Origin: Octopus vulgaris
Lineage: Eukaryota
Length of the DNA stretch: 64,000 bases
Reading direction: 5' to 3'
Assembly: GCA_951406725.2 (NCBI GenBank)
Contig: OX597822.1
Span: 73,842,001-73,906,000 of the forward strand
Under the pieces are notes generated by a model that made no database searches, had not been told where the DNA came from, and was given only the letters and a program-made list of their open reading frames with translations. Made by a program: the position numbers and the translations under genes. Shown one piece after another: positions 14,138-15,576 of this stretch. The stretch's first letter is position 1; the number at the start of each line of letters is the position of its first letter.

Positions 14138-14911
14138 AATATATATATATATGTATATACATTTGGAGAGAAGATTTTTCTCAAAGAGTTAAGATTGAGA
14201 AAAGAACCTCTTTAGAAAGTCGTAAGACACTAACCTTTGGGAAGAGATTTTGCGAAAAAATCTTCTCTCTAAATATTGTAACTGTATCAAGAAATTTCCA
14301 AAACACACACACTCTCTCTATCTCTCTGTCTCTCTCTTTCTCTCTCTATCTCTCTCTCTTTATATATATATATATACAGAGAGAGAGAGAGAGAGAGAGA
14401 GAGAGATAGTGAGTGAGTGAGTGAGTGAGAGAGAGAGAGGGACAGAAAGAGAGTCAGTATCACAGACAGACAGAGCAGACATAGACAGATAGACAGAGGT
14501 GCATATGAGTGGACAAACGAATGAACACGGCACTCAGCATATTTGTCAGGAGTTACATATACGAGATAATTTTATTCTAAAACTTTGACCAGATCGGTTC
14601 ATTTGACGAGTCTACGAAACTTGCATAGGGCCGAATAAAACTGTTATTAAATTACACACACACACACACACACACACACACATATATATATATATATATA
14701 TAATGATAAATATCAAAGTGAGTTATATACAGTAGCGGTAACACATCGTGACGTATATTTGCCATTTCAATATGGCTACCCCTAAGGGTGGATGCTACTG
14801 TAGTTTTTAGCCCCAGGAGGACACACTCCTCCAGCTGGCCATAGACACACTTTCTGTGTCCTGTCAGTATTTGCAAAGGGAAGTCATCCTTCCCGTCTTC
14901 AACTTATGATA

Positions 14912-14956
14912 CACACGGACTCGAGTTTCGAGGTATTGACCTCTCGTCAGCGTGTG
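14912..14956 (-). ncRNA. Minimal type I hammerhead ribozyme (mirror copy)
   Basis: Exact reverse complement of 14971-15015. Confidence 0.88.
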
Positions 14957-14970
14957 ACAACTATGATTGT

Positions 14971-15015
14971 CACACGCTGACGAGAGGTCAATACCTCGAA
15001 ACTCGAGTCCGTGTG
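14971..15015 (+). ncRNA. Minimal type I hammerhead ribozyme
   Basis: cacacg-CTGACGA-gaggt[caat]acctc-GAAA-ctcgag-TC-cgtgtg; canonical core, GUC site, palindromic stem III. Confidence 0.9.
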
Positions 15016-15576
15016 TATCATAAGTTGAAGACGGGAAGGATGACTTCCCTTTGCAAATACTGACAGGGCACAGAAAGTGTGTCTATGGCCAGCTGGAGGA
15101 GTGTGTCCTCCTGGGGCTAAAAACTACAGTAGCATCCACCCTTAGGGGTAGCCATATTGAAATGGCAAATATACGTCACTATATATATATATATATATAT
15201 ATATATATATATATATATATATATATATATATCATATATATACATATATATATATATATATATACATACATATATACATATATATATATATATATATACA
15301 TACATATATACATATATATATATATATATATACATATATATACATATATATATATATATATATATATATATATACATATATATACATATATATACATATA
15401 TATATATATATATATATATATATATATATACATATATATACATATATATATATATATATAACGGGAAGCTTTATGAAAATAAACAAAAGACGAAGGCAGG
15501 TGGAAAACAAACGAACAATTGTATTAGTATGGCGCTCAGGAAATATAAATAAAACAAGTCTTATATATATATATGT

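Follow-up and report, generated by a model that had tools for sequence, protein, structure and literature searches.

Non-LTR retrozymes of animals are described, in the accessible text of the reports on them, as non-coding tandem repeats of 150-450 bp, with units of 350-390 bp in mussel (PMC7229834; bioRxiv 10.64898/2026.07.22.740005). Circularisation by an RtcB-type ligase has been reported for mussel and axolotl retrozymes. The other system of interest is that of the Penelope-like elements (PLEs). According to the openly available part of Frangieh et al. 2024 (PMC11167929), purified protein of the Anolis element Poseidon bound RNA just 3' of the hammerhead, and two internal starts defined the genomic tail. 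As traits of PLEs, the available text of PMC8557442 describes inverted insertions that carry the tail at one end, as well as the targeting of (TA)n by Neptune, and a U3-A8 variant of the hammerhead core is on record in that of PMC4209133. Two open questions are touched here: how retrozymes without an ORF enter genomes, and which RNA feature the PLE reverse transcriptase (RT) recognises. For the copying of retrozymes the field has a hypothesis, and for RT recognition one region mapped in vitro, judging from the accessible text of PMC11167929.

We analysed a stretch of 64,000 nucleotides, referred to as the window, of the Octopus vulgaris genome (2.8 Gb, with abundant (TA)n). A preliminary description of this window had noticed three divergent repeat families, A, B and C, with one ordered RNA architecture in common, and had taken them for pseudo-LTRs (pLTRs) of autonomous Penelope-type families. 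The architecture is indeed present, with all its named helices within single arms of the insertions, and it belongs to a real covarying RNA domain common to nine retrozyme families. The repeats themselves fit non-LTR retrozymes, being non-coding tandem units of 345-365 bp that each carry a type I hammerhead.

Retrozyme families and their units

Clustering of 236 core-complete copies gave nine families (A to I), whose representatives are 44-80% identical in the core. A first look returned candidates for every family (A 2355, B 657, C 2128, D 2459, E 2157, F 1032, G 943, H 2727, I 1516), figures which are not copy numbers and in which related families overlap. Model matches above 25 bits were present in 9/40 10-kb stretches (38 at arbitrary round coordinates and 2 adjoining the window), and therefore the genome probably holds tens of thousands of retrozyme loci. 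In all nine families the units are arranged head-to-tail and directly abut, and no LTR is present. The modal tandem spacing is 352 bp in A, 360-361 bp in B, 364-365 bp in C, about 352-358 bp in D, about 347 bp in F, 350-366 bp in G, 353 bp in H and 342-365 bp in I, and the two observations for E gave 330 and 353 bp. Copies within a family are 98-99% identical in A and B and about 82-84% identical in F, G and I.

The domain lies 3' of the hammerhead in every family, as had been proposed, at a distance of about 55-60 nt. This includes family B, for which the preliminary description gave no hammerhead; one is lacking in the truncated window copy only, and 70/70 B-type hammerheads were followed by the domain. 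Hammerhead cores with their stems were found for A, B and C, and by eye for D, E, F, G, H and I. A sister copy of the family A hammerhead matched Rfam Hammerhead_1 at 32.2 bits (E 2.6e-6), which is under the 34-bit cut-off, and the family C hammerhead is a U3-A8 core variant.

Two other kinds of hammerhead repeat were observed in the window. One is a different type I hammerhead with a longer stem III, present in two copies (48476-48521 and 50276-50321, both on the plus strand) that have other downstream sequence, one of them ending in (ATT)n, and neither the domain nor a nearby ORF. The other is a short hammerhead family, GTTT CTGACGA AGAGCTCCGCTC GAAACGT, found at about 24073 (+) and also at loci L128, L134, L155 and L167; it is followed by about 100 nt and (TA)n, without the domain.

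The domain is so far known from one genome. Near-identical family A DNA was present in runs from several other coded organisms; none of the runs with it is listed as RNA, and for 14 of them an RNA nature is a guess. Two runs guessed to be RNA, from the organisms coded B and C of one study, gave one 383-nt contig each that goes back 352 nt, as expected of a circle but equally of a tandem transcript or of DNA; the joint of this contig is also found in a DNA-sized run, and such contigs cannot separate a circle from a tandem. The same two runs (X5, X6) contained an extra contig of 351 or 367 nt from a D-like family, which suggests that more than one family assembled at unit length.

Copies in the window

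In the window these non-coding tandem repeats survive as dead fold-back insertions (Table 1). The intervals originally named for A, B and C have the same build, that of a fold-back palindrome between (TA)n flanks, and so each of them, instead of being one copy of the domain, holds two partial copies, with the core domain of about 165 nt inside. In the A and B window copies the short insertion end is on one arm and the long end on the other. The covariance model finds the window copies at 64-146 bits. They are expected to fold mostly arm-on-arm and are therefore unlikely to form the domain themselves. An artefact of the palindromes was ruled out, as the helices sit within one arm and are present in plain tandem copies.

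Table 1. Positions of retrozyme features within the window
Feature	Position	Strand	Remarks
Additional rearranged family C fragments	3574-3894		hammerhead, rod and tail pieces; absent from the preliminary description
Older family C insertion, subfamily C1	13820-14137	+	partial hammerhead, cut site 13920; domain 13979-14133, P6 decayed; 116 bits
Inverted short arm of the C1 insertion	in 13820-14137		carries the U3-A8 core variant
Family A fold-back insertion	14701-15179		in a (TA)n tract; two inverted 5'-truncated copies of the 352-bp retrozyme unit
Family A arms	14745-14960/14967-15182		216 nt, 99% complementary; unit length taken from tandem copies
Complete family A domain	14702-14867	-	covariance model 146 bits
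Helices of the complete A domain	P1 14861-14844; P2/P3 14841-14808; P4 14801-14794 with 14736-14729; P6 14776-14761; P8 14724-14709	-	P2/P3 with AGCU/UGG internal loop
Family A tail, 45 nt	14703-14747	-	between short and long insertion ends; contains P8 and the P4 3' strand
Second family A hammerhead copy	14912-14956	-	left arm
Type I hammerhead, family A	14971-15015	+	dimer type with a palindromic stem III; cleavage predicted after 15009
Family A post-cut segment	15010-15062	+	GACGGG..CCCTTTGCA at 15030-15055; predicted 5' strand of the rod extending hammerhead stem I (from predicted folding and a family-specific complement)
Family A domain copy stopping at the short end	15066-15179	+	ends 13 nt past P6; P4 partner missing here
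Helices of this copy	P1 15066-15083; P2/P3 15086-15119; P4 5' strand 15126-15133; P6 15151-15166	+	
Family C fold-back insertion	31291-31646		both arms cut off before the hammerhead; domain 31484-31650 (+) and 31308-31475 (-)
Family B fold-back insertion	36018-36332		minus arm to the short end (36018), plus arm to the long end (36332)
Family B helices	P4 36221-36228 with 36295-36302; P6 36255-36270		hammerhead removed by truncation

For the 8-bp long-range helix of family C, the pairing first proposed, ACGGCAGC/GCTGCCGC (7/8 pairs), is right for the copy at 13950-14137, but in the copy at 31291-31645 ACGGCAGC belongs to the other arm and the same-strand partners are GCGACAGC/GCGATAGC. In the 13.9-kb C copy an inversion junction breaks the hammerhead core of the plus strand, and the arms of the copy at 31291 are truncated before reaching a hammerhead.

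Architecture and covariation of the domain

From 5' to 3' the domain consists of a P1 hairpin, a P2/P3 helix, an A-rich linker, the long-range helix P4 and a P8 hairpin. P2/P3 has an AGCU/UGG internal loop that is conserved in sequence, with family B deviating. P4 encloses a variable hairpin P5 of 16-25 nt, the near-invariant P6 and a weak hairpin P7, and the junction that it closes spans 75-77 nt in six families. P6 is a stem of 5 bp with a 6-nt loop RUUNNN, the consensus being GCCAY-RUUNNN-NUGGC.

Covariance between families, claimed on the basis of A, B and C, extends to all nine when whole helices are considered. We used the commonest letter of a family in each column (for H, one natural copy) and simulations that match the number of changes per column. 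In this test, which leans towards structure because registers were hand-anchored with the pairing in view, the P4 register of E was hand-corrected and P8 and two frayed terminal pairs were omitted, 248/261 family-by-pair cells in five helices (P1-P4 and P6) were canonical, against 219±6 in the null, with a maximum of 238 (0 of 5000 tree simulations reached the observed value). Compensatory changes, that is double changes on the same branch, numbered 20, with 4.0±1.8 expected and a maximum of 11 in the tree simulations.

Two further comparisons lean less towards structure. The four helices named from A, B and C paired in 130/138 cells of the six families that the preliminary description had not seen, and of the 26 cells of these families with a pair type absent from A, B and C, 18 were canonical and 13 Watson-Crick. 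When 19 natural copies were aligned by sequence only, 89.5% of cells paired, compared with 34-46% in slid controls; a double change was found in 18/36 pairs, reached by 3/500 shuffles, and there were 62 double-change cells against 22.8 in shuffles (0/500). Further pair types in the same alignment were not above shuffles. RNAalifold, unaided, recovers P1, P2/P3, P4 and P6.

A pairwise covariation test of the R-scape kind (G-test with APC, tree-simulated null), which had been suggested as a check, gave no pair at E<0.05, the best being E 0.75, with 126/236 copies left after a 95% identity filter and low power from nine lineages. P7 is paired in 76% and P6 hardly varies, so that for these two hairpins the support is conservation and not covariation. 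On the hammerhead strand there were 12 G-U versus 4 A-C cells, which argues for selection on pairing.

The absence of a named motif was borne out, as Rfam matched the hammerhead only. For the domain there was no Rfam match at E up to 10 in the family A unit, and in the family E window only two noise snoRNA matches (E 5.6 and 6.9). In the Rfam scan of the whole window, the 150 matches listed out of 314 were all below cut-off and nearly all were miRNA models on microsatellites or palindromes. A strict domain pattern had 0 matches in metagenome contigs. A relaxed pattern matched at least 118 stretches in such contigs, and these are taken as chance, since none of the 80 listed exceeds 20.5 bits, whereas full copies reach 57-150 bits.

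The P4-closed junction is about the size of a tRNA in the six families, and TAGCCAGCTGG resembles an A box that is one base short. Perhaps the domain descends from a host RNA that was captured, for example a tRNA-like head, and acts as an internal promoter for transcription of the array. We consider this quite improbable, given that ARAGORN finds 0 tRNA genes in 9 loci and Rfam none, that no B box is conserved in the alignment beyond the A-like box on its 3' side, and that the compensatory pair changes indicate RNA structure rather than a double-stranded DNA promoter. A tRNA-derived SINE head was rejected on the same ARAGORN and B box results. An origin from tRNA, SRP, 5S or telomerase RNA was dropped, having support from neither Rfam, in which telomerase gave no match, nor ARAGORN.

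Folding of the monomer

When natural monomers were folded as circles, the approximately 55 nt after the cut paired with about 100 nt that precede the core of the following hammerhead, so that stem I is lengthened into a rod. The best rod partner was the upstream segment of the same family in 6/7 families, the exception being a decayed D copy. The preliminary description had counted a GAC-GGG..CCC-TTTGCA hairpin in the post-cut segment as part of the domain. The predicted pairing with the pre-hammerhead segment is far stronger (-36 to -55 kcal/mol, versus -7 to -16 for the local fold), which makes it more likely that the segment forms one strand of a rod closing the monomer. A switch between the rod and the local hairpin is possible according to these folds. 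The rod would also bring the ends of the monomer together, as ligation to a circle requires.

Monomers of four families folded more stably than shuffles (z -3.1 to -6.1), the rod strand has an alternative local hairpin, and metazoan circles are argued, in the accessible text of PMC7229834, to need a block on the hammerhead. These points would suit a domain that stabilises the circular RNA or gates the hammerhead, which would cleave as precursor and be closed as circle, with selection acting through RNA abundance. Such a role seems improbable to us, however, as stability alone needs neither invariant loop and junction letters nor fixed end offsets, and the domain is at the rod end opposite to the hammerhead.

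An IRES-like or 5'-end-protecting element for the uncapped cleaved RNA had also been suggested. The domain is 3' of the cut on the same strand, and ribozyme cleavage in RNA viruses can trigger cap-independent translation, according to the available text of PMC13725137. We nevertheless find this option very improbable. An IRES would have no ORF to serve, as no conserved ORF follows the domain (in the four families tested, reading around the circle from ATG gives at most 38 aa in A, 89 in B, 50 in D and 27 in F), and the repeats that precede PLE ORFs did not contain the domain. Protection is weakened by the start of the domain some 55-60 nt from the cut and by a 5' end that is predicted to be paired in the rod. 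A SECIS element, described for Naiads, was dropped because there is no ORF and no Rfam SECIS match.

Insertion ends and a possible copying mechanism

Internal 3' ends were counted relative to P6, BLAST ends overrunning by 2-3 nt into the TA tract. Ends at +10 to +20 accounted for 27/30 in A (a biased sample, as the query stopped at that end), 20/24 in B, 10/12 in C, 17/20 in D and 16/21 in E, and for 8/13 in I, 7/16 in F and 11/38 in G, the last count taking in the long ends of that family. The 10-20 nt after P6 hold most internal ends, or the largest cluster, in eight of the nine families. Family H, fetched later as a test, had 15/15 ends at +12 to +18, and 34 copies reach +58 to +60. The long ends are just past P8, at about +58 to +72 from P6, so that a second end is found roughly 45-60 nt beyond the short one.

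The two insertion ends are the two-start 'tail' of Penelope-like reverse transcription. Other traits of PLE mobilisation are present as well, namely inverted 5'-truncated copies and microsatellite or AT-rich targets, most insertions lying in (TA)n or AT-rich DNA. The Penelope-type insertion anatomy that had been proposed is thus supported, and tail, inversions and targets are genomic evidence for the integration of retrozymes by the Penelope mechanism. Family E, at loci L367-L391, inserts in (TA)n in 0/21 cases, though the domain and both end offsets are kept, which hints at a different endonuclease partner. The short start falls within the loop closed by P4, and the template RNA would therefore be longer than many insertions, as in a circle or multimer.

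Because insertions end at two fixed points on the domain, it likely positions a borrowed Penelope-type RT, and among the functions listed in the preliminary description the same fixed points favour an RT/endonuclease recognition signal. As we read the sequences, chances are about even that the domain is a platform which recruits and positions the borrowed Penelope-like RT and sets the start of the copy. A tandem array would be transcribed, dimeric hammerheads would release monomers whose long rod keeps the ends together, and a host ligase of RtcB type would turn these into circles. At the opposite extremity of the rod the domain, chiefly P6 in the P4 junction, would be bound by a Neptune-type protein, either directly or via a host adaptor, and target-primed reverse transcription would have two starting points, one about 13-19 nt 3' of P6 and the other about 45-60 nt beyond the first, which would leave the tail on one arm of inverted insertions. 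In this scheme the cleavage step, the closing into circles, the contact with the RT and the choice of enzyme are inferred. Against the proposal, a local signal of any kind that happens to run alongside the domain could produce the same constant spacing of the ends, and family E keeps the offsets yet avoids (TA)n.

Perhaps the RT reads just such a short local end signal, and the partner of the domain is a host factor by which the non-coding RNA reaches the transposition machinery, for example through ribosome tethering or localisation. Ribosome tethering has a precedent in the Alu domain with SRP9/14. Non-coding parasites need a means of capturing protein from another RNA, and P1 and P2/P3, with the conserved AGCU/UGG loop, are 60-110 nt away from the starts. 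However, Rfam searches of the windows of two families, with matches accepted to E 10, gave no SRP, tRNA, 5S or other host RNA, and the ends track P6 at a near-constant offset despite the variation in length of P5. We regard a host-adaptor role as doubtful but worth serious consideration, a standing that it keeps because the domain is absent from autonomous elements.

Autonomous Penelope-like elements

Two RT queries, one DNA query and the Pfam GIY-YIG model served to look for autonomous partners of the domain, and full-length copies were read. Four PLE families have a ZnF linker before GIY-YIG (Neptune/Nematis type, the clade being unplaced by tree) and are mutually 46-58% identical; all PLE remnants in the approximately 1.8 Mb examined match these four. 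These families are young and intact, with frames that stay open over 753-781 aa; they have hammerheads of their own and, in (TA)n, two ends, and they coexist with the 98-99% identical copies of retrozymes A and B.

The domain was absent from 34/34 autonomous-element loci, examined with the covariance model, and from 20/20 further GIY-YIG loci. In none of these loci did the domain flank an ORF for RT and GIY-YIG, and the reading of these ORF-less repeats as the pLTR of an autonomous PLE is not supported. The supposed association with PLE ORFs was found in only 4/332 motif arrays, with a same-strand PLE match at most 1 kb upstream, and none was shown to be the repeat of the PLE. Of two such cases, that at L292 looks like a chance insertion and that at L064 like a junction without endonuclease. 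In the latter (L064:1751-1800; G000:C19, about 1.18 Mb) a decayed PLE ORF stops before the endonuclease and joins a family C unit, by template switch, deletion or nested insertion, any of which could account for it.

The post-hammerhead segments of the autonomous elements consist of about 60-170 AT-rich nt from the cut to the ends and are mutually unlike. As the autonomous elements lack the domain, their RTs are able to start where it is absent, and simple mimicry finds no support. The domain is thus not a copied pLTR of the elements examined, whose RTs work on their own RNA without requiring it. That these elements lack the domain is the main weakness of a model of direct binding. An autonomous carrier of the domain that is rare or of a different clade may exist. 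A terminal motif shared with Neptune ends was set aside as weak, the family I terminus and one Neptune end giving p=0.002 before correction in 1 of 56 comparisons.

Several observations concern the PLEs themselves. In the window, the stretch at 28100-29002 (-) comes from the ZnF-linker PLE family N1; it is decayed, matches an intact frame at 79-83% identity and is unlinked to the motif copies. Family N2 (L231-L235) has a 3' UTR of about 2 kb, largely (TG)/(TA)-like low complexity, that is conserved between copies. The hammerheads of PLE family N3 (L258, L257) and retrozyme C agree in their U3-A8 core and in the palindrome of stem III, ACATGT, and mixed hammerhead dimers are therefore conceivable. 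One young PLE family (L121-L128, e.g. G000:C1:27841623-27849492) has a tandem unit of 4271 bp, in which the ORF is often two overlapping frames (454 and 775 aa, stop to stop) and in some copies one frame of at most 1199 aa.

Comparison with known systems

In the literature covered, mainly openly readable text, we found neither cephalopod retrozymes nor such a conserved domain, and the supplementary structure figures of PMC7229834 and PMC11167929 could show a related fold. The element class is already known there, and we found in it no account of the domain or of how this relates to the two-start tail. A covariation-backed RNA target, predicted starts at fixed offsets and young intact candidate enzymes make both questions raised at the outset directly testable.

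The repeats resemble animal non-LTR retrozymes, as these are presented in the accessible text, in having one type I hammerhead per unit, a self-paired monomer, coexistence with PLEs and a proposed mobilisation by them. They differ in that the published retrozymes are called species-specific, with no cross-family covarying domain or mapped two-site tail described in that text. In Xenopus, 21/57 families are stated there to match PLEs, whereas the repeats here match no pLTR of the autonomous elements examined.

With Anolis Poseidon (PMC11167929, available text) the domain shares its position 3' of the hammerhead, two starts that define the tail, AT-rich targets and extension on both strands. The Poseidon region, however, overlaps the start of the autonomous ORF, and only an AC-rich stem loop is named in that text, while the domain here is non-coding, has multiple helices and recurs in nine families. 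The tail is also longer, about 45-60 nt compared with 30-40 in the PLE papers. The pLTR modules of ZnF-linker elements (Neptune/Nematis type; PMC4209133 and PMC8557442, in their accessible parts) have in common with these repeats minimal hammerheads, a palindromic stem III, the U3-A8 variant, (TA)n targeting and inverted 5'-truncated copies. The ZnF-linker PLEs of this genome differ from the repeats, there being no such domain in their AT-rich post-cut stretch.

As an analogy only, telomerase CR4/5 with P6.1 (PMC4993307, available text) is also a junction with a variable and a short near-invariant hairpin, beside the RT of the TERT sister lineage. CR4/5 is described there as a three-way junction, P6.1 having a 4-bp stem and a 5-nt loop, whereas the junction here is probably four-way, with a 5-bp stem, a 6-nt loop and the extra weak P7. 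We put forward tentatively, as a possibility somewhat on the doubtful side, that the domain is an RNA adaptor evolved by the retrozymes, not copied from an autonomous partner, which would capture PLE RTs in trans and measure both starts, a parallel on circular RNA of the TERT-binding CR4/5, kept through nine amplification waves and different host RT families.
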